A stretch of 52,240 bases of DNA, taken from assembly GCA_045605175.1 (NCBI GenBank), contig JAZUPL010000059.1, forward strand, positions 1 to 52,240, in the 5' to 3' direction. This DNA is from Eubacteriales bacterium. GTDB taxonomy: Bacteria > Bacillota > Clostridia > Oscillospirales > CAG-272. The position numbers were made by a program, and so were the translations under genes. This document shows positions 6,539 through 39,489 of the stretch, piece by piece (position 1 is the first letter of the stretch; every line of letters starts with the position of its first letter). The notes beneath the pieces were generated by a model. That model saw only the letters and a list, made by a program, of their open reading frames with translations, had not been told where the DNA came from and made no database searches.

Positions 6539-6765
6539 AATACCCTCCAAAATATTTTATCAAATAAATTATATATTATATATAAATAAAAGTAAAGGCG
6601 AAAATTGTGTCGGAGCATTTTTTTGTAGAGATTAACAAAAGCATCTTTTTGTTTTTGTAGATTTTGACAGTGTAAAAATGCCTAAAACCAAACCGATTCA
6701 CTCTTGTTATTAGTAAAGTCAACACTTATATAAGATTTTTGAGCAGTATTATTTTATTAGAAAAG

Positions 6766-21737: not shown

Positions 21738-21791
21738 TACTACTGATATATTTTATATTTGTAAATTATGAAAATTATGAAAGGAGATATT

Positions 21792-23762: not shown

Positions 23763-24125
23763 CACTCTTGTAACTTTGGCTACTATAAACCTCGACATAT
23801 CCTCGACGAATGTTCTGCGCTCCTCGGCATTGGTGCAAGAGTTTAGCCCCTGCCATACCGAGTCGGCAAGTTCGCCTATGGTCTTTTCGGTTATTTGCCC
23901 TTTGCCGTTTCTATCCATAAACTTACGCATAAGGGCGAGGGTTTCCTTTTTGCTATCTTCTCTTTCAAGGTGGGCTTTTTTGTTAGAAGCATCTCAAGGA
24001 TTTTAGTGTCGCTTAACAACGCCTCGGCATAATGGGCGTTCATCTCGTCCATTAGTATTGTGGAATTGTCGGTGGCTGTACCGAGTACACCTCTGCTTGA
24101 TGTGTTTTTTATTTTTTTCTATATC

Positions 24126-24156
24126 GGTGATATGCCGTCGGTGTATCACCTTTTTT
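24126..24156 (+). terminator. Second terminator upstream of the capsid cluster
   Basis: GGTGATATGCC-GTC-GGTGTATCACC (11 bp including two G-U pairs) followed by TTTTTT. Confidence 0.6.
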
Positions 24157-24475
24157 ATTTTTATCATGTTTTGTTGTGCCAAACGCACCGCTTTTTTGTG
24201 CTGAAGAATGTCGATAATTATGGATCGACACAAGCCTTGTGCAACATATACAATTATTCCGACGTATATCGGGTGAAGGTTTGGAATGTGGGTGTACTTA
24301 CAGGGCGAGGAAAATGTTTTACAATAGTGGTGTCGATAGGCGGTGAGCGTACGGCACCGTATAATCGACCAATTCAAGGAAGGGTGGAAAACCAAAGTCC
24401 CTGCCAAAAATCGAGCAACACCTCATACCAAAGGTACAGGGAAAAAGGGGAAGCACCTCCACAGAAAGGAGAGAA

Positions 24476-24820
24476 ATGAAAAAACGAGCAAAATACCAAA
24501 ACGAACTGCCACGAAAAATGTACGCATTCTTTATAGGGTATAGCGGCATGGGAGCGCCAAGTTTTACAAAATTCGGGGTAAGCATGGGGCTAACGCTGGC
24601 AGATATCGAAAGGTTTCGCAGATACGATGAGTTCGAGAGAGCATACCGTGAATGCAGTGAAATCCGAAGAGATTATCTTATTGACAACGCGCTGGCAAAG
24701 AAGAACGATGCATCTTTAACCAAGTTCCTGCTCTCGGCAGAGTTCGGCATGGGCGAGGAAAGCCCTGACGATGACGCTTCATCCCTCTCGGTTACGGTGG
24801 AGGTGGTGGACGGCAAATGA
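24476..24820 (+). CDS. Putative terminase small subunit (P22 gp3-like)
   Basis: Immediately upstream of terL with ATGA overlap; PSF..FG..MG..EF..A..LIDNAL..KFLL pattern and C-terminal beta strand VTVEVV. Confidence 0.7.
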   Translation: MKKRAKYQNELPRKMYAFFIGYSGMGAPSFTKFGVSMGLTLADIERFRRYDEFERAYRECSEIRRDYLIDNALAKKNDASLTKFLLSAEFGMGEESPDDDASSLSVTVEVVDGK

Positions 24821-26181
24821 AACTGCATCTAACCGTTACAAAAAAACAACGCGAGTTTATTGACGCACCTGAGAGCGAAGTGCTCTTTGGAGGAGCGGCA
24901 GGCGGAGGAAAGTCCTACGGTCAGGTTGTGGATGCTCTGCTCTTTGCATTAAAGTACCCAAAATCAAAGCAATTGATACTGAGAAGAACCTATCAGGAGT
25001 TGGAGAAGTCGCTGATACGAACCGCCCTCTCGCTGTATCCCAGAGAGATATTCAAGTTGAATGCCTCCACGCATACGGGTAGGTTTGTCAACGGTTCTTG
25101 TATAGATTTTGGTTACTGTGCGGGAGAAAATGACGTCTATCAATATCAGTCTGCCGAATATGACGTGGTGAGGTTTGACGAACTTACCCACTTCACCGAG
25201 GGACAATACCTCTACCTTATTTCCCGTGTCAGAGGTGCTAACGGATATCCCAAGCAGATAAAGTCCTCTACCAACCCCGGCGGAGTGGGACATACCTGGG
25301 TAAAGGCGAGATTTATAGACGCCTCGCCTGCCGGCGTCCCCTTCGTCGGTGAGGACGGAATGAAACGGATATTTATCCCGTCTATGCTTAGCGACAATCA
25401 CTTCCTCTGCCAAAGCGACAGTGGGTATAGGCAAAGACTTCTTGCTCTACCCGACAGAGAAAGAAGAGCGCTCCTTGACGGTGACTGGAATATTTTTGAC
25501 GGGCAATATTTCTCGGAGTTTTCCACCAAGCATCACGTTTGCAACCCCTTTGAAATCCCCTCGGGATGGCGAAGATATCGCACAATTGACTATGGTCTCG
25601 ACCGTCTTGCGGTATTGTGGATTGCATTGTCGCCCGACGGGGACGCCTATGTCTATCGAGAGTTTTGCAAATCCGACCTGCCAATAAGTGTCGCGGCACA
25701 GGAAATAGTCGCCCGCACTGCAAAAAACGAGGACATTTATGCCACACTTGCACCGCCGGATATGTGGTCGCGAACACAGGAAAGCGGCAAGACGAAGGCT
25801 GGTCTTTTCTCGGAATACGGGGTTAATATGACCAAGACCTCCAACGACCGCGAGTGTGGATGGCTTGCCCTTAAAGAGATGCTGGTAGTAGGTGAAAACG
25901 GCCCTAAACTACACATTTTTTCCACCTGCACCGAGATTATAAAATGCCTGCCCGCCCTGACGGTAGATAAACTTCGTCCCACCGACTGCTCCACCGAGCC
26001 TCACGAACTCACACACGCACCCGATGCTCTCAGGGGTTTTGCTATATTCCACCACCGTCCAAACAAGGATACAGGAAATCCTCGCAAAACTCGGTGGAGC
26101 AAGGATATGTGGGAGGATTACTACACCGCAGGCGAGGAGGCAAGACAATATCTTAAAAACAAATATGGAGAACCAATTTGA
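24817..26181 (+). CDS. terL: Phage terminase large subunit
   Basis: Walker A FGGAAGGGKS, Walker B VVRFDE, coupling motif STNP, RNase H-like nuclease IDYG and HAPDALR. Confidence 0.93.
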   Translation: MKLHLTVTKKQREFIDAPESEVLFGGAAGGGKSYGQVVDALLFALKYPKSKQLILRRTYQELEKSLIRTALSLYPREIFKLNASTHTGRFVNGSCIDFGYCAGENDVYQYQSAEYDVVRFDELTHFTEGQYLYLISRVRGANGYPKQIKSSTNPGGVGHTWVKARFIDASPAGVPFVGEDGMKRIFIPSMLSDNHFLCQSDSGYRQRLLALPDRERRALLDGDWNIFDGQYFSEFSTKHHVCNPFEIPSGWRRYRTIDYGLDRLAVLWIALSPDGDAYVYREFCKSDLPISVAAQEIVARTAKNEDIYATLAPPDMWSRTQESGKTKAGLFSEYGVNMTKTSNDRECGWLALKEMLVVGENGPKLHIFSTCTEIIKCLPALTVDKLRPTDCSTEPHELTHAPDALRGFAIFHHRPNKDTGNPRKTRWSKDMWEDYYTAGEEARQYLKNKYGEPI

Positions 26182-27953
26182 AAATCAGTAATCAACCACA
26201 ACAAAGATTAGAAATCTTCTCCTCGCTCTACGAAAATGCATTAAGCGCCATATCGCCGATATACGAAGATATGGACAAACATATGCGACAGTACAAAGGC
26301 TCACGAGAGATTGACGACTCGGTGGAGGAGGCTCTCACGGTAAGAAACATCACCTACGAAATAGTCGAGAGCCAGGTATCCTCGGATATTCCCTACCCCA
26401 AGGTCGATCCCGTCTCATACAGCGAGAGAAGAGAAAGAAACGCCGAATCGGTGGAAAGGCTTTGTCGCTCTATTCGCAACAGACTCCCCTTTGAGGAACT
26501 TAACGATATGGACGAAAGATACACCTACATCTACGGCGGAAGCGTATGGTATGCCGAATGGGAACATGATACAGAGTATATGGGCGAGATGGGTACGGTT
26601 AAGATACACTGCCTCTCCCCCCGCGACTTTATACCTCAACCCGGCATCAGCCATATCGACGATATGGAATACTGTTTCCTCAGACTTACCACCACTCTCG
26701 ACGAGGTGAGCCGAAAATATGACAAAAGTTTAGAGCAACTTGGGGAGGCAGAATTTGCCTTTGAGAGCGATAACTATCTCGAAGAATCCGAAGCCATAAA
26801 CGTAATTGTTTGCTTTTGGCGTGATGAAGTGGGTGATATTTCACGCTTTGTTTTTTCGGGCGACGTAATATTATCCGATATTCCAAAATTCTATCACAGA
26901 AAGAGTTTAAGATGCAGTCTTTGTGGCCAAGACGAGCAAGGTTGTAAATGTGACACGCCCCTATTGGTAGAAAGCGAGGTCGAGCGCGAGGTACTTACCG
27001 AAAACAAACTGCTTCGCTCGGGATATTTGATCCCCGCAATAGCCCCGAAAATTGCAGAGAGAGGGGGAAAGGGCGGCTCGCATCACACCGAAATCCCCTA
27101 TTATGTACCCAAGGTATTCCCCATCGTCATAAGGAGAAACACCTCCTCGGAGGGCGAGTTGTTCGGTCAATCGGATTGCGACTATATTAGACCTCAGCAA
27201 CAGGCTATAAACAAGATAGAGTCTCGCATTCTGCAAAAACTTTTACGTGCGGCGGTAACCCCAATTATGCCCGAAGATGCCACCGTCAGTGCCTCCAACT
27301 CAATATTCGGTCAGGTTATAAGAATGAAACCCGGAGAAAATCCCGGTCAGTATGGCAAGGTGGACACCACACCCAATATAGCCCAGGATATAGCAGAGGC
27401 AGAAAGACTCTACGACCAGGCGAAGAGAATTATAGGCATCTCCGACGCCTTCCAAGGCATCGACACAGGACTTAACGAATCGGGTGTGGCAAAACAACTT
27501 CGTATTACCCAAGCAAGAGGCCGTCTTGATTCTAAGAAAAAGATGAAATACAGCCTATACGCATCGCTTTACCGTGTCATTTTCGGTCTTTATCTCGCCT
27601 TCGCAGATGAGCCAAGACAACTCGCCTTCAAGGACGCCTTCGGCAGAGTGCATCAGGCTCAGTTCAACCGTTATGACTTTATCGAATATGATGTTCGATC
27701 GGGCGAGTATTACTATGACGATGCCTATCTGTTCTCGACAGACTCAGGCGAGGGTGATGCCGACCAGAGAGAACTTCAATGGCAGAGAAACCTCGAAAAC
27801 CTCAGGTCGGGAAGCCTTGGCGATCCGTCAAGTGTATCTACACTCTTGCGCTACTGGCAATGTCAAGAGAGAGCGCACTACCCCAACGCCAGAGAAAACG
27901 TGGAATATTTCACCGAGGCATTAAAGGCAGAGGGAGGTGTTACCTATGTCTGA
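26178..27953 (+). CDS. Phage portal protein
   Basis: 591 aa directly after terL (TTGA overlap); NITYEIVESQV, SPRDFIPQP, FPIVIRRN, LFGQSD, QQQAINKI, GISDAFQG and SGVAKQ are portal-like. Confidence 0.8.
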   Translation: MKISNQPQQRLEIFSSLYENALSAISPIYEDMDKHMRQYKGSREIDDSVEEALTVRNITYEIVESQVSSDIPYPKVDPVSYSERRERNAESVERLCRSIRNRLPFEELNDMDERYTYIYGGSVWYAEWEHDTEYMGEMGTVKIHCLSPRDFIPQPGISHIDDMEYCFLRLTTTLDEVSRKYDKSLEQLGEAEFAFESDNYLEESEAINVIVCFWRDEVGDISRFVFSGDVILSDIPKFYHRKSLRCSLCGQDEQGCKCDTPLLVESEVEREVLTENKLLRSGYLIPAIAPKIAERGGKGGSHHTEIPYYVPKVFPIVIRRNTSSEGELFGQSDCDYIRPQQQAINKIESRILQKLLRAAVTPIMPEDATVSASNSIFGQVIRMKPGENPGQYGKVDTTPNIAQDIAEAERLYDQAKRIIGISDAFQGIDTGLNESGVAKQLRITQARGRLDSKKKMKYSLYASLYRVIFGLYLAFADEPRQLAFKDAFGRVHQAQFNRYDFIEYDVRSGEYYYDDAYLFSTDSGEGDADQRELQWQRNLENLRSGSLGDPSSVSTLLRYWQCQERAHYPNARENVEYFTEALKAEGGVTYV

Positions 27954-28695
27954 AATCAAAGGTTTGGAAGAATATATGCGAAACTACTTTCGCTCCACCA
28001 CCCTTGAAAACGGACCTATGAGTTTCTCGACCTTCAAGTCGCAAACCGGCTCTAACCCTGCGGGCGACTACGCCCGTGCCATGAGTGCTGCAGCCAAAAA
28101 GGCTATCAAAAACAGTTCCTCCTACGGCACAGGCGCTGTCGATATGCAAAAACTTGGGCTTACAGGCACCGGATATAGTGACTATCTCTCAGCCCTCGAA
28201 AAGGATAGCCTTGCAAGAACCGAGGCAAGTCTTCTGACAGATAGAAAGCGAGCCGAATACGACGAGGCGCAAAACTATCTTTCCTATCTAACAAAATATG
28301 CTGAAAAGCAGCAGGAACTAAACACTCGCATTACCGACGCCTTGGTGCGTGAACGTATAACCGATGCCAATACCGCATACCTTTACGGAATACATAACGG
28401 GCTTTCTCCCGAAATGGCAAAAAAGGCGGCGAGCGACTCGTACGGTCTTATTAGGCAGAAACTAATCTCCGAAATTCTATCACGGGCGGCATCCTTGGAA
28501 CTTGATGGCGAGGGCGCCGAGATATATGCAAGACATATGGGAATGTCGGACAGTGATGCTAAAATGATAGGAGAACAGGCAAAAGAACTCTATGCCCACT
28601 ATTTGCAGATATCCGATGAATATCTCGACTATTTAGACCGATTAGACGAACAAGGCGACCACACCAACGGCAAATATGTTATCAAAGATAAATAA
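27946..28695 (+). CDS. Hypothetical helical virion protein (possible internal/ejection protein)
   Basis: Ala/Tyr-rich helical sequence with LGLTGTGYSDY; ATG at 27946 follows GGAGGT and overlaps the portal stop. Confidence 0.5.
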   Translation: MSEIKGLEEYMRNYFRSTTLENGPMSFSTFKSQTGSNPAGDYARAMSAAAKKAIKNSSSYGTGAVDMQKLGLTGTGYSDYLSALEKDSLARTEASLLTDRKRAEYDEAQNYLSYLTKYAEKQQELNTRITDALVRERITDANTAYLYGIHNGLSPEMAKKAASDSYGLIRQKLISEILSRAASLELDGEGAEIYARHMGMSDSDAKMIGEQAKELYAHYLQISDEYLDYLDRLDEQGDHTNGKYVIKDK

Positions 28696-28710
28696 AGAAA
28701 GGAAATTATT

Positions 28711-28848
28711 ATGAGCAACAAAAAGGATTTATCCAGCGTTTACAGAACCACTTCTATCCACATCATCAAGGCTCCCGTACCCAACCCTGATAAGCACAGC
28801 GGTAGTGTAATCAAATTTTCGGGAGATGGTCGTGGAGGTAAGAAATGA
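28711..28848 (+). CDS. 45-aa basic microprotein (absent from the ORF track)
   Basis: AAAGGA SD; MSNKKDLSSVYRTTSIHIIKAPVPNPDKHSGSVIKFSGDGRGGKK; stop overlaps the next start (ATGA). Confidence 0.7.
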   Translation: MSNKKDLSSVYRTTSIHIIKAPVPNPDKHSGSVIKFSGDGRGGKK

Positions 28849-29318
28849 CCGAACAGGACGTTATCGAACTTGAAAACGAGGTTGACGAGTCTATCGGGGA
28901 GGTAGAAAACATAGTCGTCAAGGAAAACGACAACGATATCGACACAGAAATTCCCTTAAGCGAGCCCGCTATCGAAGAGGGAGATATTGACTACGAAAGT
29001 CTTATGATGGAAGATCTTGCCGAACTTAAAAGGGAGTTTTCCGAACTCGACAGTATTGAAAACATAACCGAACTTTCCAACCCTCTCCGCTATGCGGCAT
29101 TACGTGACCTCGGTCTTTCTCCCAGAGAAGCATATTTGGCAACCTCTCCAAGAAAGACTGCCACAGACAACCGTGCACACCTCTCATCCGCAGTGGGGAG
29201 AACAACCTCAAGACCTAAAACCGCAATACCTCCCGCCCAACTTAGACTGGCAAGAGAGTTATTCTCCGACCTGTCTGACGCAGAAATCAACGCCCTTTAT
29301 CGCAGGGTAACAAAGTAA
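28845..29318 (+). CDS. Putative capsid scaffolding protein
   Basis: Very acidic N-terminus, helical middle and C-terminal helix-turn-helix (ARELFSDLSDAEINALYRR); directly before the capsid gene. Confidence 0.65.
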   Translation: MTEQDVIELENEVDESIGEVENIVVKENDNDIDTEIPLSEPAIEEGDIDYESLMMEDLAELKREFSELDSIENITELSNPLRYAALRDLGLSPREAYLATSPRKTATDNRAHLSSAVGRTTSRPKTAIPPAQLRLARELFSDLSDAEINALYRRVTK

Positions 29319-29379
29319 ACAAAACAGATGCGAACCTAACTCGGGAAAACCACCCGGGTAAGGCTCGCAAAATTGCCGT

Positions 29380-29397
29380 GAGATTTTCACGAGCAAA
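29380..29397 (+). repeat. Left arm of inverted repeat flanking the capsid gene
   Basis: GAGATTTTCACGAGCAAA; 29383-29397 is the exact reverse complement of 30501-30515. Confidence 0.85.
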
Positions 29398-29442
29398 ACT
29401 AATCCAATTATAAAAAACAAATAATAACAAGGAGAGAATTAA

Positions 29443-30492
29443 ATGGTAATCTATTCTAAAAATGACGGTGCTCATTTTGCCGCAATAGGCAGAATTGAAA
29501 CGCCTATTAAAATGATAATCGAAAGAGAGAGTAATATTCTTGACCAAAAAGGGGGTATTTGCGACTGGTTGTTCAATGTAGAAAAGAGCAACCGTTTCGC
29601 TGAAACCATTGTTAGTCAGGGCGACTTCGGAATCTTCATGTCAACATCTGAGGGCGAAGATGCAAATCAGGATAGTTTTATAGAAAACCCCGGAAAGTAT
29701 ATCGAACATATTCAGTTCACAAAGGAATTCGTAATCACAGCTGAGATGATGGAAGATGCTGTAAACGGTATCGCAACAGATGCAAAAAGAAGGGCAGAAA
29801 GTTTTACCCGTGCTTATTACAGAACGAGAAACAAAATATGCGAAACTGCTCTTGCCAAAGGCAACGAATATTCTGCGAATTTTGGCGGTACTACCCTAAA
29901 TCTTACGACATGGGATGACTTGCCACTCTTCCACAACAGTCACAGTTGTGGCAACATGCCCCAATCAAACTACTTCTGGGGCAACTTTACTACCTCTGCC
30001 AGCGATTCAACCAAACTCGACGCCCCAAGATTTGCAGAAGTGCTCTATATGCTTTCCCACGAACTTCGTTCGATGAAGAGCGATAATGGTGAAATTCTTG
30101 GATACACCGCTGACACCATCATTCTTCCCGGAAACAGACCTAAACTTGAGGCTATGGTAAAGGCGGTTTGCGGTAGCGAAACCTCCCCCTTCACCACCGA
30201 CAACAATATCAACCTCCACTATGGCAACTGGAATATCATAGTTCTTCCCTCGTGGACAACCACAAGAGATGAGTTTATGCTGATGTCTTCCGAGGCAAAC
30301 AAGAATATATGTGGCAATATGTTCTTCAACCGCATACCTCTTTCAATAGACAACTGGATTGACCATCGTTCAGGCAACTATATCTGGACTGGTAGATGTC
30401 GTTTTGGTGTAGGTTTTGGTAACTATAAGCATATTCTCCGTGCTATCAACTCCACCGATGAAATCGAAGACGCAACCGAGCTTATTGTATAA
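29443..30492 (+). CDS. Major capsid protein (HK97 fold likely)
   Basis: 349 aa after the scaffold; strong AAGGAG SD; SEGE..DSF.E..K.IEH..F..EF.IT.EMMED, D.LPLF..H and R.R.GVGF patterns. Confidence 0.8.
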   Translation: MVIYSKNDGAHFAAIGRIETPIKMIIERESNILDQKGGICDWLFNVEKSNRFAETIVSQGDFGIFMSTSEGEDANQDSFIENPGKYIEHIQFTKEFVITAEMMEDAVNGIATDAKRRAESFTRAYYRTRNKICETALAKGNEYSANFGGTTLNLTTWDDLPLFHNSHSCGNMPQSNYFWGNFTTSASDSTKLDAPRFAEVLYMLSHELRSMKSDNGEILGYTADTIILPGNRPKLEAMVKAVCGSETSPFTTDNNINLHYGNWNIIVLPSWTTTRDEFMLMSSEANKNICGNMFFNRIPLSIDNWIDHRSGNYIWTGRCRFGVGFGNYKHILRAINSTDEIEDATELIV

Positions 30493-30500
30493 CCGTTTGC

Positions 30501-30570
30501 TTTGCTCGTGAAAATTTCTAAATAATCGAGCACGGGTGCAGACTTGCTCGTTTTCGGGCGCTGCACCCGT
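30501..30570 (+). repeat. Right arm of the inverted repeat plus a strong hairpin after the capsid gene
   Basis: TTTGCTCGTGAAAATTTC (30501-30518); ACGGGTGCAG/CTGCACCCGT 10-bp stem (30532-30570). Confidence 0.8.
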
Positions 30571-30591
30571 TAATTCAAAAAAGGAGGAAGA

Positions 30592-31419
30592 ATGACTTAT
30601 AATCAATTAAAAAAGGATGTATTTCGTCTGGGTTTTGAGACGGTCATTGAGGATGAAAATATTCTTCTCGGAGCTGCAAACTCTGCCCTTGACCTGATAT
30701 ATCTCGACCGTCCGAGAGTAAAAACTTCAAGGCTCTACGTAAAACCTGTGCATTTCGTCCTGTGCCGCGAGTACTTATACATAAAAGGAAATACGGTGAC
30801 TGTACCCCTTGAGGGTGACGCCTATTCATTCACCGCCGTCGGCCGGGGAAAATACACCTTACAATCCCGCGAAAAAAAGGTTAGCCATAACATTTCACTT
30901 GGTGATCTTAATCACAGCGGGCGCCTGGACTCGAGTGGAACTATAACCTTTGAGAGCGAAAGCGGGCTTACAATATACAACCTCGCCTCGATAAAGGAAC
31001 TCGCAGAGGATTTATCAATTCCGCTTTATTCACGGTTAAGAGAGGTGGATCCAACAAACGGCGACGGTGACCTCAGATCCTTTTGCCACAGTCCCTACTA
31101 TGCCGACGGAAAAGAAGTCAAAGAGGCGGTGCTTAAAGGCGAAAAACTGTTTTTACCCGCCGAATTTCAGGGCGAAATCTTCCTTGACTACTACCGAGCA
31201 CCCACACATATAACGGCAGACAACCCGGAACAGAGCATAGATATTTCCGAGGAGGTATCCCCCCTGCTCCCCCTGCTCACCGCCTCATATTTGTGGCTGG
31301 ATGATGACAGCGAAAAGGCTCAGTATTATATGGCTCTGTACCGTCAATCTCTGGCAACTGTAATGCGTTATTCGATTCGCTCTCTGGACTCGAAATACAA
31401 AACTAACGGGTGGGCTTAA
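30592..31419 (+). CDS. Putative head-tail adaptor (podovirus gp11/gp4-like)
   Basis: Position after the capsid gene; N-terminal helices and C-terminal YYRAP..I....D.S..LLP..ASYL..DD....Y pattern. Confidence 0.6.
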   Translation: MTYNQLKKDVFRLGFETVIEDENILLGAANSALDLIYLDRPRVKTSRLYVKPVHFVLCREYLYIKGNTVTVPLEGDAYSFTAVGRGKYTLQSREKKVSHNISLGDLNHSGRLDSSGTITFESESGLTIYNLASIKELAEDLSIPLYSRLREVDPTNGDGDLRSFCHSPYYADGKEVKEAVLKGEKLFLPAEFQGEIFLDYYRAPTHITADNPEQSIDISEEVSPLLPLLTASYLWLDDDSEKAQYYMALYRQSLATVMRYSIRSLDSKYKTNGWA

Positions 31420-31420
31420 T

Positions 31421-34099
31421 ATGGCGGTTTACAGAAAAAACGGAACTCAAAACCAATATACCAAAGCCTACACCAATCTTCGAGGAATCAGAGCGACGGG
31501 CGGGGACGGCGAAGTAGAATATATGGAAAACCTCTACCGTGACTACCACAGCAGCGGAGGGGGATTCCCCGAGAGCGTACCCGGTTACAGACTCTTAACT
31601 AAATTACCCTATAAAATCAATGCCATTTATCCCCTGGGCTCAAGCGACACCACCAAACTTATTATCCACGCCGGCACTTCGCTTTACGTCGTGCCTACAA
31701 GTGCACCGTCTAATTTTATAAAGATAGCAGATATCGGCATTTCGGAAAGTTCCGCCTTTCGATTCGGCAATTATCTTTATTTGTTGTCGGGTGGAAAAAT
31801 GTTCAGAATCAGCACCTCCGGGCTTATACAGGAGGTCGGTGACGACAAGGAGGTAAAACCCTATTCACCTATTGTGTATTTTGACGATGAGAAGTACGAG
31901 CAGCGAAACCTGTTAAGCAATAGAGCAAGAGAACGAATCAGAGTATTCAGTACAGAGCGTTTTGCTTACGGTAGTAAGGGTATAAAATATCACATAGTGG
32001 ATACCGTGTTAAGATATTGCTCGGTTGTTGGGATAGATAGCGAGTTCAGCGGCGCACTTTATATCCCGGGCTATACCCGTATCGGGACTGACGAATACAA
32101 GGTCGTTGACATAGAGGACAAGGCTTTTGCACAAAACACAAGTATTACCGAGGTGCATATTGGTGAGGGGGTTGAGAGGATAGGCAAATTTGCTTTTCAA
32201 AAGAATACTGCATTAACGAAACTTACAACTCCTCGGTCTTTAAGAATAATCGACAACGCCGCCTTTCAGGACTGTACGTCACTGTCCGAGGTTTATCTTT
32301 CGGACGGGCTTGAATACGCCGGCATTGCTGTATTTAATTTCTGCCTATCTCTGAAGAAAATGAACTACTCCCTTGACGAAACCCACTTTAAGGCAATAGA
32401 AAACTACGACCTGATAGACAATTATGAACTTATCTATGAAAGCGAGAATCTTTCAGGAAGAGTAGCCATCCCGATACACTCCGAGGCAAATAGTTGCCAA
32501 AGGGTGACGATTGATCAAGAAGAGATCGAGTTTGAAACAGAGACAGAAAACGGCAAGCCCTGTGCAGTGCTTTTAGACACACAAACGCCCTGGTCGTTGG
32601 ACGGAAAGACGATAGAAATAGAACTGCTTCTTCCCAATTTGTTTTCCCGTTTCGACGGAACAGGGGGTAACGAAGGGCAGATTGAAGGCAAGGCGGCTAT
32701 CTGCGGTTGCAGAATAAGTGAAAAGTTTGACGGACGCATTTTCCTAAGCGGAAACATAAATCTCCCCGGTTCGGTATTTTATTCTGCTGTGGGAGTTGAG
32801 GGTGACGGCGAACCGCTTTATTTCGGAGAATATAACTATTTCAACGACTCAAGAGGCGAGGCAGATATCATATCAATGATGGCGGTGAGGGACTCGCTCG
32901 CAATATTCAAAAACAAGGACGACGGACAAGGAAGCATTATTTACCACTACGGAAAGGACACCGAAGACGATGTAGTGCCGAGAGTATATCCTATAAGTTC
33001 GGTTCATTCGCAACTCGTTGCATGTGGGGCTTCCCGCAATTTCTTTGATGACCCGGTGTTCATATCCCCCTTAGGATTATGTGGAATTGAGCACCGCCAA
33101 CTTGAATATGATAGAAGCATTTCGGTCAGATCCGAAAATGTAAACTACTATTTACTTTCAGAAGATCTCAAAAATGCCGAAATTGTCGAGTGGGAGGGCT
33201 ATCTCTGCATATCGGTCGGAGGCAATATGTATCTCGCTGATTCAAGGGACATAAGCAAGAATCGGCTCGGCAAAATACAATACGAATGGTATATGATAAG
33301 AGGTGTGGGACACTACGATAACGCCATGCCCGTGTACCGTTATTCGCTTAGCAACTCGGATGCATTATCCGAGCACCCCAACCTTGACAGGAAGGTAGAA
33401 GGAATTGTATTCAGTAGTATTTTAACGGATAAAGACGGCGAAAATTCTTTGATGTATTTCACTATGGAGCAGGGTAAAAGGTTTGCCGTTGCACCAACCG
33501 AAGAAACCAAAGGCGGCATCTTCAAAGAAGGCAGATGCTTTACCTCGGACGACGGTATTCATCTTTACTTTACCGCAAGCGACGGATACCTGTACACCTT
33601 CAATAACGATATGCGAGGAATAGCGCCCGAGAGAATACGCGAATCTTTCGACTTCGACGAGGACGAATATTCCTCGGTAATGAAACACAAAATTCACCCG
33701 GATTTTTACGATTTTGGTGGAAGGTCTGTGCGTTATGCCTTGAGGACAAGGGCCGATAACTGCACCTCGCCACACCTGTCTAAGGATACTGTAAAAGGCT
33801 CTTTGGTGGTAAAGTTAAAGAACTTCGGTCGCACTTCTCTAACTCTTGAAGTAGGTACTGACAGGTCGGGTTACAAGGAGATTGTCGAATTTAGCCCCTC
33901 AGATATCGATTTTTATGACATAGATTTCTCAGGTTTTACATTTGCCCTTGCAGACAGTTATACCCTGCCCTTCGGCGAAAAAGAAAAAAACTGGATAGAA
34001 AAGTCGATTTCGCTATATACCGAGAATTTCAGAAGTCCAATAGGTGTAGAAACTGTCGCCTTCCGCTATCGCCTGCGTGGGAAAATAAAGAAAAGATAA
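31421..34099 (+). CDS. Putative tail nozzle/stabilisation protein (beta-propeller, T7 gp12/P22 gp10-like) with an inserted BspA-type LRR domain
   Basis: NLRG, MENL, DGRIFLSGN, VFYS, LAIFK, PVFISPLG and RSENVN beta-rich repeats; IEDKAF/IGKFAF/IDNAAFQDCTSL LRRs. Confidence 0.65.
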   Translation: MAVYRKNGTQNQYTKAYTNLRGIRATGGDGEVEYMENLYRDYHSSGGGFPESVPGYRLLTKLPYKINAIYPLGSSDTTKLIIHAGTSLYVVPTSAPSNFIKIADIGISESSAFRFGNYLYLLSGGKMFRISTSGLIQEVGDDKEVKPYSPIVYFDDEKYEQRNLLSNRARERIRVFSTERFAYGSKGIKYHIVDTVLRYCSVVGIDSEFSGALYIPGYTRIGTDEYKVVDIEDKAFAQNTSITEVHIGEGVERIGKFAFQKNTALTKLTTPRSLRIIDNAAFQDCTSLSEVYLSDGLEYAGIAVFNFCLSLKKMNYSLDETHFKAIENYDLIDNYELIYESENLSGRVAIPIHSEANSCQRVTIDQEEIEFETETENGKPCAVLLDTQTPWSLDGKTIEIELLLPNLFSRFDGTGGNEGQIEGKAAICGCRISEKFDGRIFLSGNINLPGSVFYSAVGVEGDGEPLYFGEYNYFNDSRGEADIISMMAVRDSLAIFKNKDDGQGSIIYHYGKDTEDDVVPRVYPISSVHSQLVACGASRNFFDDPVFISPLGLCGIEHRQLEYDRSISVRSENVNYYLLSEDLKNAEIVEWEGYLCISVGGNMYLADSRDISKNRLGKIQYEWYMIRGVGHYDNAMPVYRYSLSNSDALSEHPNLDRKVEGIVFSSILTDKDGENSLMYFTMEQGKRFAVAPTEETKGGIFKEGRCFTSDDGIHLYFTASDGYLYTFNNDMRGIAPERIRESFDFDEDEYSSVMKHKIHPDFYDFGGRSVRYALRTRADNCTSPHLSKDTVKGSLVVKLKNFGRTSLTLEVGTDRSGYKEIVEFSPSDIDFYDIDFSGFTFALADSYTLPFGEKEKNWIEKSISLYTENFRSPIGVETVAFRYRLRGKIKKR

Positions 34100-34120
34100 C
34101 AAGTAGTAAAAGGAGTTAAA

Positions 34121-34477
34121 ATGAAAGCAACAAAAATTACCGAGGGAGAGATATCAGATCTGCTTATTTCTTCCCTGCCGACAAGACCAACCGCACCCAC
34201 CTCCTTTGGTGGAAAGGGCTTTACGGCATCAGATATGAAAGCGGCGTTTGACGCTCTGCCTCTTTATATAAAGGACAGGTTGAACCTGCTTATAGACAAC
34301 ATCTCTTCATCGGGTGAGGATTCGGTCGCTCACTCGATACAAACAGGCATAAAAGAGGACTATACTCTCGCCAATCTTTTCGAGGATATACTCAGCGGTA
34401 ATATACTTACTCTTATCAATTTTGACGGTGAAACCCTGTATAGTTTTCTACTAAGAGTCAGGGATATGCTCGCATAG
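34121..34477 (+). CDS. Small virion-associated protein (tail fibre N-terminal-like)
   Basis: SSLPTRP..G.G.TASDMKAAFD...RLNLLID; AAGGAG SD; follows the nozzle gene. Confidence 0.5.
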   Translation: MKATKITEGEISDLLISSLPTRPTAPTSFGGKGFTASDMKAAFDALPLYIKDRLNLLIDNISSSGEDSVAHSIQTGIKEDYTLANLFEDILSGNILTLINFDGETLYSFLLRVRDMLA

Positions 34478-34487
34478 GGGAGGTTGT

Positions 34488-34883
34488 ATGACTAAAATAG
34501 AATACTCTACCTTCTCTGGCATAGGCGAGTGGCGAAACTACACCAAGGGGAGCGAAATAACCGAATTTTCCTTTCCTGACACCAAGGACGGCAACCTGAT
34601 TATAGGTGGTTATATATACCCCTTATGCGCCGGTATTGCCACAGTCAATGCAAAGGAGATAAAAGATGGTATTTATCGCCCAAAAATTAACACGGGTGCC
34701 TGTATAATAGCCTTAGAGCCTATCGAAATCAAAAAAGGAAACATCAGTCCCGTTCCCACCGAGGAACAAACAGTAAGACGTCTGTGCAGCCGTTTGGAAG
34801 TGGCAGAGAAGCAGATAGAAACCTTGACCGAGATATGCTATCAACTGCAAAGCAGAATGGGCAACAGCCTACACCTGTTTTGA
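34488..34883 (+). CDS. Hypothetical protein (beta-rich N-terminus, C-terminal coiled coil)
   Basis: GGAGG SD; intact ORF within the operon. Confidence 0.7.
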   Translation: MTKIEYSTFSGIGEWRNYTKGSEITEFSFPDTKDGNLIIGGYIYPLCAGIATVNAKEIKDGIYRPKINTGACIIALEPIEIKKGNISPVPTEEQTVRRLCSRLEVAEKQIETLTEICYQLQSRMGNSLHLF

Positions 34884-34916
34884 ATTTTTCACCGAATAAA
34901 CAAGAAAGGAAACCAG

Positions 34917-35708
34917 ATGAAAAGAAGTATTAAATTTATTATTTTCACCCTTATGCTTGCCTTGATGCTACTCCCCCTTTCGGCAAGCGCCGAGAGTCTT
35001 TCGGAAAATACCGAAACAAACGCGGGCTCAACCGTCTCCGAAGAAGCGGTAAGCACCGACAACGAAGTGGGTATAATAACCGAGCAAGACAAAATAGCAG
35101 AAGATGCCCCACCCCCTGACAATATAGAACAAGAGGAAAAGGGCGATAATCAAATCGAGCAGGGTGACAACAACGACGCTCCCACCGAAGATGAAAACAC
35201 CGCCGCCGGCGCAGGCGACAAGGGGGATAACCCTTTTGAAATGATCTACAACTTTGCCACCCTGCATATAGGCGAGATATTTTCAATTCTCTCCTTTATC
35301 TCTGCGGCACTTGTTGCACTGCTTTATAACAAGGGACTTCTGCCCGCCTTAAAAAATTCGCTCTCGGCTATGGCAAACATACTCTCCGGAGTCAAGGATT
35401 CTACCGAAAAGAGTGAAAACCTATCTAATGAAATGCGACAGCAACTTCTCGAAAAGCTCGACATAGCAGAGGGCGGCCTTAAAACTATGGGTGACTCGAT
35501 TGCCACTCTCACCGAGCGTCTTGACAGTCTTACCGATTCTAAGGATGAGCAGGAAAAAATGCGCTTAATTATGAATGCACAAATAGATATGCTTTACGAA
35601 ATCTTCCTGTGCAGTAGTCTTCCCGAATATCAAAAGGAGGCTGTGCGCGAGAAGGTGGCGGCTATGAAAGAGGTGCTTTGCTGTGAAAAGCAAGAAAACG
35701 CCGATTAG
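34917..35708 (+). CDS. Single-pass membrane protein with signal peptide, acidic ectodomain and coiled-coil tail
   Basis: MKR..LMLLPLSASA signal peptide; D/E/N-rich linker; TM IFSILSFISAALVALLY; heptad-rich C-terminus. Confidence 0.7.
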   Translation: MKRSIKFIIFTLMLALMLLPLSASAESLSENTETNAGSTVSEEAVSTDNEVGIITEQDKIAEDAPPPDNIEQEEKGDNQIEQGDNNDAPTEDENTAAGAGDKGDNPFEMIYNFATLHIGEIFSILSFISAALVALLYNKGLLPALKNSLSAMANILSGVKDSTEKSENLSNEMRQQLLEKLDIAEGGLKTMGDSIATLTERLDSLTDSKDEQEKMRLIMNAQIDMLYEIFLCSSLPEYQKEAVREKVAAMKEVLCCEKQENAD

Positions 35709-36057
35709 TATTTTGCTTTGGGTTGTGGGTATGCTACTCTGTGTGGGCGCACCGCTTATAGCAACACTCTCCTACTTTCCCGTTTGGGTGGCGCAGGGTG
35801 GCGAGTTTGTCATTTCCGGCTTTACCCTGCTTATCGCTATTATATGCGCTTTGCCCCTTTACAGGTGGCTTAAAAACGGAATTTCATCCCCCTCGGGGAT
35901 TACCGTGTGGCTTGTGTTATTCCTTATATTTTTTGCACTTGCAAGGGTAGCAAACGAGATGACCGTAATTGCCTTCGTCGGATTCGTGGGAAACATTCTT
36001 GGAGGAATAGCCTTCAAAATTAGCAAAAAACTAACAGAGGAAGGAAAGAATGAATAA
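35683..36057 (+). CDS. Four-TM membrane protein
   Basis: Four hydrophobic segments; overlaps both neighbours; GAGG SD. Confidence 0.7.
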   Translation: MKSKKTPISILLWVVGMLLCVGAPLIATLSYFPVWVAQGGEFVISGFTLLIAIICALPLYRWLKNGISSPSGITVWLVLFLIFFALARVANEMTVIAFVGFVGNILGGIAFKISKKLTEEGKNE

Positions 36058-36895
36058 CGACTTCGACCCGACGCTCTTAGCCTCAGGCAACCTGGTTAAA
36101 AAGGGATATAGGCTCCTGGCAGAAAACGTGGGAAAAACGATAGCCCTGATTACCGCTATCATTGCCGTACTCGTAAGTTTTACCGAGATTGGATTCTACG
36201 AATTTGGCTCAAAGGAGATGACAGCCAACCTTATTCTTATCACGGTGGCGTCATACATAATATATTTCTCTATGGAAGATGCAGGCGAGAGGCTTGGCAG
36301 ACAGAGCGAAGAATATCTCTCTTGCGAAAAGTCGTACATCGAGATTCGCGACAAGATAGAGGCCGGCGACACCCAACTTCTGAGAGAATATTGCAAGGAA
36401 TACACCGAGGCAGAACTCGAACACAGGCGAGCGATGATGCTGGCAGAGGGTGGACTCACCCCCAAGGACTACGCCGACTATCTTGATGGCAACAAATTCC
36501 CACTTAAAGAGAGATTCACCCTATACCGTGCTAAAAATTCACGCCCGATAGACCTCACGATAGGCACGCTATTAAGCGAGAGAAATAGCGAAACAAAGGA
36601 ACTTCGTAATCCTGATGCACTTAAACCCCTCCGTCTATTTCTCTCTTTGATTCCTTCCACTCTTTGCACCTTTTTTACCGTATCGGTTATGCTCAGCACC
36701 CGTGACGGACTTACGGTAGAAACCGTTATTGAGAGCATTCTCAAACTCTCCTGTCTGCCAATCGTGGCACTGAGAGGTTATTCTCGTGGATACACCCACG
36801 CAAAAGAGGGGCAAAGCGCCTGGTTGCGCGTCAAGACATCCCTGCTTTGCGGCTACCTCAAAAAGAAGGACGAATTACTTGCCAAGACAAAATAG
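36050..36895 (+). CDS. Membrane protein (2 TM, soluble helical loop, 2 TM)
   Basis: Hydrophobic pairs around aa 30-75 and 195-240; last gene before the terminator. Confidence 0.7.
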   Translation: MNNDFDPTLLASGNLVKKGYRLLAENVGKTIALITAIIAVLVSFTEIGFYEFGSKEMTANLILITVASYIIYFSMEDAGERLGRQSEEYLSCEKSYIEIRDKIEAGDTQLLREYCKEYTEAELEHRRAMMLAEGGLTPKDYADYLDGNKFPLKERFTLYRAKNSRPIDLTIGTLLSERNSETKELRNPDALKPLRLFLSLIPSTLCTFFTVSVMLSTRDGLTVETVIESILKLSCLPIVALRGYSRGYTHAKEGQSAWLRVKTSLLCGYLKKKDELLAKTK

Positions 36896-36942: not shown

Positions 36943-36975
36943 CCACCTCCGCCAAAAGCGGAGGTGGTTTTATTT
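36943..36975 (+). terminator. Intrinsic terminator closing the capsid cluster
   Basis: CCACCTCCGC-CAAAA-GCGGAGGTGG followed by TTTTATTT. Confidence 0.85.
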
Positions 36976-37018: not shown

Positions 37019-37047
37019 TTGACATACAGATAAAAATGGGTTATACT
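37019..37047 (+). promoter_or_regulatory. sigmaA promoter of the helicase gene
   Basis: TTGACA-17 bp-TATACT. Confidence 0.75.
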
Positions 37048-37080: not shown

Positions 37081-39489
37081 ATGCGATACGATGAAAATAG
37101 GAAACTGATGCTTGTATCCCTCAGGGAATTTGTCACCCTTGCAAGACGCGGAATTGCCACCACCCTCCCCTACGACGATGAAGAACCTACCATTACCGAC
37201 ATCTCAAAAGCAGAAGGTAAAAGGCTTTCCTTGCCGGAGAGCAAAAAGCTGTTGAGGCTCTCCTTTTCTCTTGGTGATATTGACTACGAACTTTACGCCG
37301 AGGCTGAAAATATAAAGTCCAACGAAATTACCGTTGTTCGCTCGCTTGACGGAAAACCAAAAAAGAACGATATTGCAGAGTGCAGGGGCGAGGCGTTTGT
37401 CCTCGGATATGCACTTATAAAAAAAGGAAATTTTGACAAAGTACATCTTCGTTTTATCTATATCAATAGAATTAGCGGCGAGCAGGAAGAGAGCGAGGAA
37501 TGGGTAGAGAGAGAAAGACTCGATTCCTTTTTCCAAAAATGCTCGGTGTCTGTGGGAATATACGGCAAACCGGAGTTGGAAAGGGCGCTTGAAAGACTCC
37601 CCTCTATGAAGTCCTGTGCCTTTCCTTACAAAGAGATGCGAGAGGGGCAGGATAACTTTATCCGCGCGACCTATCGCAATATCGCAAGGGGAACAAGACT
37701 CTTTGCCACCGCCCCCACGGGTACAGGAAAGACGGTGTCGGTACTCTTCCCCGCCCTGCGTGCCTTAGGGGATAGACGAGTTGACAAGGTCTTTTACCTC
37801 ACGCCAAAGACCACCACTATGGGTGTGGCTAAAGACTGTATAAACGATTTTTCTAAAAACGGCGTAAAGGTGCGTGCTGTTGCCCTTACAAGCAAGGAAC
37901 GCTCCTGCAAAAACCGACTCGTATGTCGAGATGACCGACGTCTGTGCGAAAATTCAAAGAGCAGAAAACTCGCCGACGCGGTACTTGAACTGTTTTCGCT
38001 TAACAAGGCGGTAATAACACTTGATGAAATTGGCAAGGTAGCACCGAAATATTCGGTATGTCCGCACGAATTGGGGCTGGCCTACTCTGAACTGTGCGAT
38101 GTGGTAATTTGCGACTTCAACTACCTGTTTGATCCTGCGGTGTATATCCGCCGTTACTTTAATGAAGGAGGCAGATTTGCCTTTCTCGTGGACGAGGCGC
38201 ACAACCTTGTTGAGCGTGCAAGAGATGGATACTCCTGCGAAATTACCACAGAAGAACTAAATATGCTCGCTGACAGTGGGATATATGGAGAATTTAACCC
38301 CTTTAAGTCAGCGCTCAAAAAAGCAAGCGAAGAACTTTATATTCTCTTCTATCCCTATCTTGAAGACGGAATTCATAAGGATAAGGAGGACAACAAGCTA
38401 GCCGCTACGCACCTAAGCGAAGTACCCCCAAGATTCTACGAAATTATTGACGAACTAAGCGAGGCCGCCGAGGAAGAATTTTATAGTGCTGAGTCGGACA
38501 AAAACGAGAGTGCTTTGCCAAGAAAGAGGGCGATAAAAGAACTGCGCCTCAAACTTGCTCGCGTAAATAATTCTTTACAATTGTTTGATGATAAATTCCG
38601 AATACTCTTATTCCTTGAGGGCGAAAAAATCACGATAAAACTATTTTGCCTTGACACGGGTGGGGTGATCTCGCAAAAACTTGACAAGGGCTCGTCTGCC
38701 ATACTGTTTTCTGCGACCCTATCCCCACTATCCTATTACCGCGACCTGCTCGGCGGCGACAGAACAAGCGAAATCTTAGAGGTTTGCTCCCCCTTTGCAA
38801 AGGAACAGGTGTCTGTTTCCATAATGGATAGCATTAGCCTTCGCTATTCTGAGAGGGAGCGCACTCTCCCGGCAGTATGTGCTGCAGTGGCAGCAACGAT
38901 GATACCGAGAAAGGGCAACTATATGGTATTCTCCCCCTCTTTTGAATACTCAAATGCTCTCTCGGAGATGTTCAGAAAAAAATATCCTAAACTTACCGTA
39001 CTAACTCAGCAAAAAGATATGACTCCTGCAGAGAAAAAGGCTATGCTCGACGAGTTTGAAAAAGACAGAGAGGGCTACTTGGTCGGATTCTGCGTTATGG
39101 GTGGTATTTATTCCGAAGGTATAGACTTAGTCGGCAAAAGCCTTATCGGTGCTGTGATTATTGGAATTGGTATGCCTGTGCTCTCCTATGAAAGAGAGGC
39201 TATGCGTGACTATTTCGAGTCTAAATATGACGCGGGCACACAGTACGCCTATATTTACCCGGGAATGAACAGGGTTTTCCAGGCGGCGGGCAGAGTTATT
39301 CGCAGCGAGGATGACAGGGGCGTTGTAGTTTTAATAGACGATAGATTTGACGACCCAATATATAAAAAAAGCATCCCCTCTCTGTTAAAGGGAATGCAAT
39401 ACGTGGAAGAGCACAAGGTCTTAAAGGCTCGAATAGAAGAATTCTGGCGAGAGATTGACGAGGAAAACGCCCGTTCTTCCCAAAACTAA
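37081..39489 (+). CDS. DinG/Rad3(XPD)-family Fe-S DNA helicase
   Basis: APTGTGKT, Fe-S cluster cysteines, CPHE, DFNYLFDP, VDEAHNL, FSATL, SEGIDL and QAAGRVIRSEDDRG. Confidence 0.92.
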   Translation: MRYDENRKLMLVSLREFVTLARRGIATTLPYDDEEPTITDISKAEGKRLSLPESKKLLRLSFSLGDIDYELYAEAENIKSNEITVVRSLDGKPKKNDIAECRGEAFVLGYALIKKGNFDKVHLRFIYINRISGEQEESEEWVERERLDSFFQKCSVSVGIYGKPELERALERLPSMKSCAFPYKEMREGQDNFIRATYRNIARGTRLFATAPTGTGKTVSVLFPALRALGDRRVDKVFYLTPKTTTMGVAKDCINDFSKNGVKVRAVALTSKERSCKNRLVCRDDRRLCENSKSRKLADAVLELFSLNKAVITLDEIGKVAPKYSVCPHELGLAYSELCDVVICDFNYLFDPAVYIRRYFNEGGRFAFLVDEAHNLVERARDGYSCEITTEELNMLADSGIYGEFNPFKSALKKASEELYILFYPYLEDGIHKDKEDNKLAATHLSEVPPRFYEIIDELSEAAEEEFYSAESDKNESALPRKRAIKELRLKLARVNNSLQLFDDKFRILLFLEGEKITIKLFCLDTGGVISQKLDKGSSAILFSATLSPLSYYRDLLGGDRTSEILEVCSPFAKEQVSVSIMDSISLRYSERERTLPAVCAAVAATMIPRKGNYMVFSPSFEYSNALSEMFRKKYPKLTVLTQQKDMTPAEKKAMLDEFEKDREGYLVGFCVMGGIYSEGIDLVGKSLIGAVIIGIGMPVLSYEREAMRDYFESKYDAGTQYAYIYPGMNRVFQAAGRVIRSEDDRGVVVLIDDRFDDPIYKKSIPSLLKGMQYVEEHKVLKARIEEFWREIDEENARSSQN

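Follow-up and report, generated by a model that had tools for sequence, protein, structure and literature searches.

What do three membrane proteins do at the end of a capsid operon, in the place where a lysis cassette would be expected? This question is raised by a 52,240-nucleotide stretch of DNA (the window), a chromosomal piece that lies on one contig of the 2.04-Mb genome of a Eubacteriales bacterium (G000, 96% complete). Within it, a 12.4-kb operon (24476-36895) runs from the small terminase subunit (TerS) through the large subunit (TerL), the portal and the major capsid protein (MCP) to three genes that we call M1, M2 and M3. Little is known about how the particles of gene transfer agent (GTA)-like elements, and those of many gut phages, exit the cell, and gut phage genomes often lack identifiable lysis genes. 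One possibility is that M1-M3 serve in particle release; alternatively, they may act in docking, DNA entry or exclusion. Our preference, held tentatively and as close to an even call, is that they make up a holin-like release module of several subunits, outside the canonical types, whose partner lysins are encoded elsewhere. Inheritance of the trio by this domesticated cluster from a lineage of 42-45 kb phages with the same three genes is part of what we consider the best explanation.

The last three genes of the operon

The preliminary description of this DNA had three membrane proteins with overlapping reading frames ending the operon, and we recovered the same three open reading frames (ORFs; Table 1), with overlaps of 26 nt between M1 and M2 and of 8 nt between M2 and M3. 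A Shine-Dalgarno-like purine run lies 6-8 nt 5' of each start. Since the strongest terminator-like hairpin of the region lies directly after M3 and the best promoter-like site lies before the downstream helicase gene, we take the trio to be the last three genes of the operon. The architectures proposed in that description were borne out for the signal peptide, spacer and transmembrane (TM) segment of M1, for the four TM segments of M2 and for the 2TM-loop-2TM arrangement of M3, but the coiled coil proposed for M1 was recovered only as a long continuous helix.

By hydropathy, M1 has a hydrophobic N-terminus (residues 1-19) and a single TM segment (118-136). Its AlphaFold2 model consists of a helix (2-27), an acidic, low-confidence stretch (28-105), a short helix preceding the TM helix (118-139), a 91-residue helix (142-232) and a final helix (237-262); the long segment is continuous in the model, and a coiled coil is not formally predicted. 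Among 23 aligned M1 relatives, nearly all have the signal-like N-terminal segment, and a TM motif (YKKGLLP) and a C-terminal motif (QIDMLYEIF..SSLP.YQKEA) are conserved. The acidic, variable spacer outside the membrane shrinks across these relatives from ~100 residues to ~0, which argues that it is probably a tether rather than a domain. In M2, three segments exceed the hydropathy threshold and a fourth falls just under it, and this fourth segment does pass in the phage and G493 orthologues described below. A conserved FP(V/L)W motif, with invariant F-P and W, follows the first TM segment, and the protein ends in a charged tail (SKKLTEEGKNE). M3 has four TM segments by hydropathy (24-42, 57-75, 196-214 and 223-241), and its model (mean pLDDT 76) shows two TM helices, a confidently modeled helical loop of ~120 residues, a second pair of TM helices and, at the C-terminus, a long helix. 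Judged by charge distribution, the cytoplasm would hold all soluble regions of M2 and M3 as well as the helical portion of M1. A complex prediction of M3 and M1(105-263) with M2 as partner, run with alignments, returned a score of 0.00 (mark 0.32) and counts neither way.

M1, M2 and M3 are real genes under purifying selection. We computed ratios of nonsynonymous to synonymous substitution rates (dN/dS) for 12 cluster genes against the nearest sampled species (G077, TerL 92.5% identical) and obtained 0.15 for M1, 0.09 for M2 and 0.06 for M3 (200 codons), compared with 0.057 for TerL, 0.068 for the portal and a range of 0.04-0.18 across all genes tested. These ratios are rough because dS is near saturation, although the proportion of nonsynonymous differences is still far below that of synonymous differences for all three genes. 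Given this constraint and their conserved orthologues, M1-M3 are not chance ORFs.

The families of the trio are, as far as profile comparison goes, undescribed in the curated libraries Pfam, PHROGs, NCBIfam and PADLOC, in which M1-M3 gave nothing above noise. Scans of 14 cluster ORFs against Pfam and PHROGs, and of 11 against NCBIfam, found no lysin, peptidase or holin family, which agrees with the earlier statement that no amidase, CHAP, glycosidase or peptidase motif was recognized in the cluster; a match to known holin families, named there as what would speak against the idea, did not appear either. No holin family emerged when the relatives were scanned (30 of M2 and 37 of M3 against Pfam, 23 of M1 against PHROGs), and no PADLOC defense family matched M1, M2, M3 or the neighboring g118 and g131. 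Holin_BhlA had no match in G062, G048, G093, G097 or the window's contig, with sub-threshold matches only on unrelated contigs of G050 and G000. Literature searches on lysis without endolysin and on holins acting with autolysins turned up no comparable system, which does not show that there is none in print. Three candidate assignments were rejected. SLATT for M3 reached E 0.008 (15.7 bits versus a 60-bit cut-off), with 3 of 37 relatives matching any SLATT family at E 0.005-0.03 and an ESM Atlas lead at 0.76; CyanoTRADDas_TM, found in 9 of 30 M2 relatives (best E 0.0014), was treated as a match of hydrophobic composition; and phrog_1009, of unknown function, appeared in only 4 of 23 M1 relatives.

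Relatives are most numerous for M3. A word-seeded search found 239, and the M3 profile matched 780 clusters (at 50% identity) at E <= 1e-3, 472 of them at E <= 1e-10, whereas 25 relatives were detectable for M2 and 11 for M1; on these counts, M3 can be regarded as the founding member of a large unnamed family. Fold searches gave no function. M3 matched nothing in the PDB at E <= 0.001 (Foldseek), and a wide VIA-align search reached a best Z of 6.7, within noise for helical models. Five unnamed viral proteins in BFVD superpose on M3 over its full length (TM-score ~0.6), confirming its phage homologues without naming what they do. M1 had no BFVD match at E <= 0.001, and the ESM Atlas returned only unnamed clusters.

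Holins in the trio's place and the trio in phages

If the trio belongs to the particle system, it should keep company with the terminase cluster, and the preliminary description had asked for this co-occurrence to be examined. Our genus sample comprised 80 genomes, or 81 with G000. TerL was found in 77 of the 80 (and in 31 of 31 high-quality genomes, G000 included) and the M2 profile in 70. Across the 81, TerL and M2 occur together in 71, TerL alone in 7, neither in 3 and M2 alone in none, so that independent occurrence was not seen. By our reading of two tables, the pair shares a contig in at least 55 of the 71 double-positive genomes, M2 usually lying 7.5-16 kb downstream of TerL. Synteny extends over the entire cluster in 10 close loci from other species of the genus, with M1-M2-M3 at its end in 10/10. 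In these loci TerL is 70-73% identical to the window's and the flanking ABC-F gene 74%, compared with 37-44% for M3, 37-48% for M2 and 28-42% for M1 (its C-terminal part only). The DinG-like helicase gene lies directly downstream in seven of the nine close loci with a visible flank, while the flanks differ in a divergent clade, where the trio is kept in 5 of 10 loci (in two of these, M3 is too diverged for BLAST).

Two species (L052, G014:C14:108000-126000; L053, G075:C4:316000-334000) carry the cluster in a circularly permuted order: g157, MCP, adaptor, leucine-rich repeat (LRR) protein, fiber, M1, M2, then TerS, TerL and portal. M1 and M2 thus stand between the fiber gene and TerS, and M3 was not detected. 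This permutation suggests either independent integration of a circular ancestor or rearrangement. Among the TerL-only genomes, TerL lies too near the contig end for the slot to be visible in three (G018, G072 and G088), and in G062 the slot holds a ~95-aa TM-plus-helix segment, within a 163-aa ORF, which hhalign found unrelated to the M1 family. Outside the genus, the M3 profile matched one other genome (G493) among 399 of the class, where the end of a phage-like block is again formed by M2- and M3-like genes, and M1 was not detected.

What stands in the slot where the trio is missing bears most directly on its function. In G048 (92% complete), the genes after the fiber gene encode an SPP1-type holin (PF04688, E 4e-12, above the cut-off; phrog_263) and an XhlA-like protein (phrog_937, E 9e-6), the latter unrelated to the M1 family by hhalign, and in G093 (95% complete) the place after the fiber gene is taken by a Hol44-type holin (PF16079, E 1e-8). 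The M2 profile found no match anywhere in either genome. Related clusters in two other families, with MCPs 27-30% identical to the window's by tblastn, end in Amidase_2, a small ORF and Phage_holin_4_1 (G316) and in an Amidase_3 protein with a 110-aa, 2-TM ORF (G293). The suggestion that the trio sits where a lysis cassette would be expected is thus supported by all four loci. Among 400 other genomes of the class, nine have an MCP relative at 29-33% identity, and five of these nine belong to the 15 genomes of one family; the nine gave no M3 profile match in the class-wide search, and hidden Markov model searches found no M1, M2 or M3 in the five whose loci were fetched.

Phage genomes commonly exchange lysis modules that are not homologous to one another while the position stays fixed. 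Our main argument that the trio does a holin's job, an indirect one, is that canonical holins replace it at the same position, and this replacement indirectly favors release over docking, DNA entry or exclusion. Canonical Gram-positive cassettes, of which xhlA-xhlB-xlyA of PBSX is one and which include SPP1-type, Hol44-type and Phage_holin_4_1-plus-amidase modules, resemble the trio in standing at the end of the late operon after the fiber genes and in encoding small membrane proteins, several of which cooperate; they replace it directly in G048 and G093 and fill the same slot in G316. They differ in that no sequence similarity to the trio was found, and in that the trio has three members, of which two are large and have cytoplasmic domains, and no adjoining endolysin.

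The trio is also found in phages. An IMG/VR scan with one alignment (A1) returned no loci, but a distant M3 relative used as query gave 13, and another single distant relative gave one weak locus. In INPHARED (GenBank phage records), tblastn found no match for M3 or two distant relatives, and the MCP matched only two unannotated fecal phage contigs at 28-29%. In the phages the structural operon closes with the trio, and four of the contigs are 42-45 kb long. The versions in these phages are 26-36% identical to the window's M2 and M3 and keep the M1-M2-M3 order; the M1 family meets the phage M1 versions at an hhalign probability of 24%. One phage genome, G097 (45,377 bp), has terminal repeats and is 100% complete by CheckV. 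Its genes run RecE/RecT/RusA, TerS, TerL, portal, proteins of 767 and 1248 aa, a capsid protein 44% identical to the window's, an SU10-type adaptor, an 879-aa protein, a fiber gene, a diversity-generating retroelement, a g131-like gene, M1-like (219 aa), M2-like (134 aa) and M3-like (335 aa) genes and an rve-type integrase. No lysis-category PHROG was found among 63 of its ORFs and no lysin or holin Pfam family among 53, many ORFs being without annotation.

Two further observations concern this phage lineage. In G097, a reverse transcriptase (phrog_1423, E 4e-90) lies beside a tail protein (phrog_5302; L047:4419-6874), which by family assignment is the layout of a diversity-generating retroelement aimed at a receptor-binding protein. 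A second, more divergent TerL (38-66% identity) occurs on five contigs of the genus (G003:C93, G057:C6, G078:C5, G096:C36 and G063:C90), each of which also holds an M2 homologue at a distance of 18-23 kb; complete prophages of this lineage, residing next to the domesticated copy, are the probable explanation.

A possible release module and its alternatives

How might such a module work? Translational coupling would yield M1-M3 in fixed ratios as the final products of the late operon, and they would insert into the cytoplasmic membrane of the producer. There M2, small and with four TM segments and a charged tail, would be the holin-like lesion former, and M3 and M1 would scaffold or time it through their large cytoplasmic helical domains. 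Lost membrane integrity or proton motive force would then allow unlinked peptidoglycan hydrolases to open the wall and free the particles. Membrane permeabilization, complex formation, this division of labor and the dependence on unlinked lysins are all things that we infer. The preliminary description had allowed for an endolysin elsewhere in the genome, and three Amidase_3 genes do lie on other contigs of G000 (other members of the genus have two each), although none has any tie to the cluster; they are candidate autolysins, and the host Amidase_3 enzymes would be the candidate hydrolases of this scheme. No Phage_holin_4_1, Holin_SPP1, Amidase_2 or GH25 was found in G000. The proposed mechanism has a precedent: when holins collapse the proton motive force, lysins residing in the wall and autolysins of the host, LytA among them, become active (review PMC6116005).

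Several points weigh against release. The fiber gene was exchanged along with the slot in both G048 and G093, so module shuffling is possible instead of strict functional equivalence, and G050 (99% complete) keeps TerS through the 892-aa protein with g131 and the trio lost and the slot empty. The trio has the end-of-late-operon place of a lysis cassette, with canonical holins in the relatives' slot, but no lysin adjoins it and none is tied to the cluster. M2 is a small TM protein with a charged C-terminus, as a holin would be (124 aa, 4 TM), but M1 (263 aa) and M3 (281 aa) far exceed the usual size of holins and carry conserved domains in the cytoplasm, and no sequence or fold link joins M1-M3 to any holin family (Pfam, PHROGs, NCBIfam; 30 M2 relatives). 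In addition, G097 has two other small TM ORFs that could be its holin, one of 106 aa with three TM segments on the opposite strand and one of 109 aa with a charged tail, and any toxicity, permeabilization or particle production is putative.

Given their place behind tail and fiber genes, M1-M3 might instead be virion-borne proteins, packaged or tail-associated, that insert into the recipient's membrane as a DNA conduit. P22 gp7/gp20/gp16 and T7 gp14-16 form such conduits for short-tailed particles, and the three P22 genes likewise lie at the distal end of the structural operon. The particle type fits (P22/SU10-type portal, SU10-type adaptor), the trio has been retained in a stripped-down cluster of mostly particle genes, and it is present in real phages of the lineage. 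However, the P22 proteins are packaged, largely soluble and membrane-active, whereas M2 and M3 cross the membrane repeatedly and are strongly hydrophobic (segments above the threshold: three in M2, four in M3) and M1 has a signal-peptide-like N-terminus; insertion into the producer's own membrane is therefore expected, rather than entry into the capsid, and no similarity to the P22 proteins was detected. Furthermore, G048 and G093 keep their particle genes with holins in place of the trio and no trio elsewhere, G050 has lost it, and the 767- and 1248-aa proteins after the G097 portal are more plausible internal or ejection proteins. We consider this explanation distinctly unlikely.

A role in the producer's membrane other than lysis is unlikely as well, if somewhat easier to credit. 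The trio could be a docking or assembly platform, a route of non-lytic egress, or a means of exclusion or immunity against particle re-entry. The large, conserved and confidently modeled cytoplasmic helical domains of M1 and M3 point to particular protein partners more than to a simple pore, M1 has a variable, acidic spacer on the outside, holin resemblance is lacking, and M3 has no convincing match among solved structures (best Z 6.7). Nevertheless, exclusion would oppose transfer among kin in a GTA-like system, and exclusion genes are usually separately expressed morons, not the coupled last genes of a late operon. We know of no precedent for non-lytic egress of tailed particles from monoderm cells. 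Moreover, only holins were seen in the trio's place, and PADLOC gave no match.

It is also conceivable, at a similarly low probability to that of the conduit, that M2 alone is the holin and that M1 and M3 are unrelated passengers or antiholin-like regulators of lysis timing. In length and layout only M2 (124 aa, 4 TM, charged tail) resembles a holin, conservation is lowest in M1 (28-42%, C-terminal part), which is barely detectable in phages (hhalign 24%), and G493 has M2 and M3 matches with no M1 detected. Yet the M1-M2-M3 order and coupling are kept both in domesticated clusters and in phages in which M2 and M3 are down to 26-36% identity, and M3 is the most constrained of the trio (dN/dS 0.06). 

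A small 4-TM protein beside a larger polytopic partner recalls the holin-like CidA/LrgA and CidB/LrgB pairs of Firmicutes, in which a 4-TM protein of ~120-130 aa is encoded beside a larger multi-TM one and which are linked to controlled cell death and lysis. M2 and M3 share that layout, but M3 has four TM segments around a large soluble loop, a third, signal-peptide-bearing partner (M1) is present here, and Pfam LrgA/LrgB matched neither M2 nor M3, nor their relatives in our scans.

A holin-like release module thus remains our preferred reading. It also has a bolder form, a serious if doubtful prospect, in which M1-M2-M3 would be an undescribed three-component membrane machine that releases particles without a phage endolysin, through autolysin-triggering depolarization or another mode of egress, in a lineage of gut Clostridia phages and in the genus-wide GTA-like element derived from them. 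If true, lysis or egress would gain a new class whose protein families are its own, that of M3 by itself counting ~780 clusters at 50% identity. The trio is a defined, conserved three-gene candidate that is selected genus-wide, common to phages and swaps position with classical holins. Should it be a release module, it would supply new families for lysis-gene annotation and show that wall hydrolases of the host can serve a domesticated particle system.

The surrounding GTA-like cluster

The cluster as a whole looks, from its gene content and distribution, like a domesticated, podovirus-type, GTA-like element that is near-universal in the genus. It forms one co-directional block between an ABC-F gene and a DinG-like helicase gene (Table 1), in a window that also holds housekeeping genes including rnpA, yidC, jag, mnmE, tuf and hisS. 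Structural and packaging genes sit at a chromosomal site without replication, integration or lysogeny genes: Pfam and PHROGs scans of the cluster ORFs found no integrase, replication or repressor gene in the block. Recent prophage integration of the cluster was ruled out, as there is no integrase and no att-like direct repeats bracketing the block were found. The cluster is conserved across the host lineage under purifying selection, and its small terminase lacks the DNA-recognition part, the 114-aa TerS aligning only to residues 109-189 of the 197-aa TerS of G097 and to 81-168 of 175 in phrog_3064.

Table 1. Positions in the window of the operon's genes, its flanks and nearby signals
Feature	Position	Strand	Remarks
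ABC-F gene	21768-23717		Upstream flank
TerS	24476-24820	+	Truncated, 114 aa; phrog_3064
TerL	24817-26181	+	Pfam, PHROG
Portal	26178-27953	+	P22/SU10 type
g252, g157	within 27937-29318	+	Without family
MCP	29443-30492	+	Weak phrog_371; 44% identical to phage MCP
Adaptor	30592-31419	+	SU10 type; Pfam, below cut-off
892-aa BspA-LRR protein	31421-34099	+	Pfam LRR_5
g118 (fiber anchor stub), g131	34121-34883 (g118, 34121-34477)	+	Without family
M1	34917-35708	+	263 aa, ATG start
M2	35683-36057	+	124 aa, GTG start
M3	36050-36895	+	281 aa, ATG start
Terminator-like hairpin	36943-36967	+	10-11 pairs, 8 G-C, T run; 48 nt past M3
Promoter-like site	37019-37047		Best of region (11/12); in front of helicase gene
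DinG-like helicase gene	37081-39489		Downstream flank, with MTAN and LuxS beyond

Among known systems, the closest in layout is FpGTA of Faecalibacterium, described in the portions of the report cited here as a 10.5-kb, ten-gene podovirus-type operon whose TerS lacks the DNA-binding domain and which is present in 12 of 12 genomes examined (PMC12946183). Both are ~10-kb podovirus-type GTA-like operons of gut Clostridia, near-ubiquitous in their genus and free of replication and integration genes, with the order TerS without DNA-binding part, TerL, portal, scaffold, capsid and conserved hypotheticals; the comparison is one of layout, not of sequence. The two differ at the lysis step. The holin and endolysin of FpGTA lie in a second operon ~125 kb away, and those portions of the text mention no membrane proteins in operon I (PMC12946183), whereas the operon described here itself ends in M1-M3 and G000 has no canonical holin (two holin families searched). 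The present cluster extends the podovirus-type GTA-like elements of gut Clostridia to another genus, with a different solution to the lysis step.

An ORF of 139 aa in front of TerS (g139, 24060-24479) was rejected as a cluster gene, having no tblastn match in the related loci searched and a terminator-like hairpin inside. This hairpin (24126-24150) is followed by promoter-like sites at 24225-24254 and 24297-24325, and 24060-24479 is more likely the regulatory leader of the operon than a gene.

Among the neighbors, the DinG-like helicase matches the PADLOC model of the type IV-A CRISPR-associated DinG at E 6e-110. Its gene is a conserved flank gene (46-52% identity) beside MTAN and LuxS, and no cas genes were seen nearby. 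A 780-aa BspA-type LRR protein is encoded 18 kb upstream on the minus strand (4208-6550), with the same repeat type as the cluster's 892-aa protein.

Within the cluster, g118 corresponds to the N-terminal ~110 residues of tail-fiber proteins of 479-1122 aa in other species (L024, L026, L028-L032), and this stub is all that is left of the fiber protein in the window and its close relatives. In G010, the g118-like and g131-like genes are separated by three additional ORFs (156, 381 and 89 aa). Compared with the nearest sampled species, the MCP and g157 of G000 are 66-68% identical, versus 92.5% for TerL and 87% for the portal, a difference which suggests that these head genes evolve faster or were exchanged.

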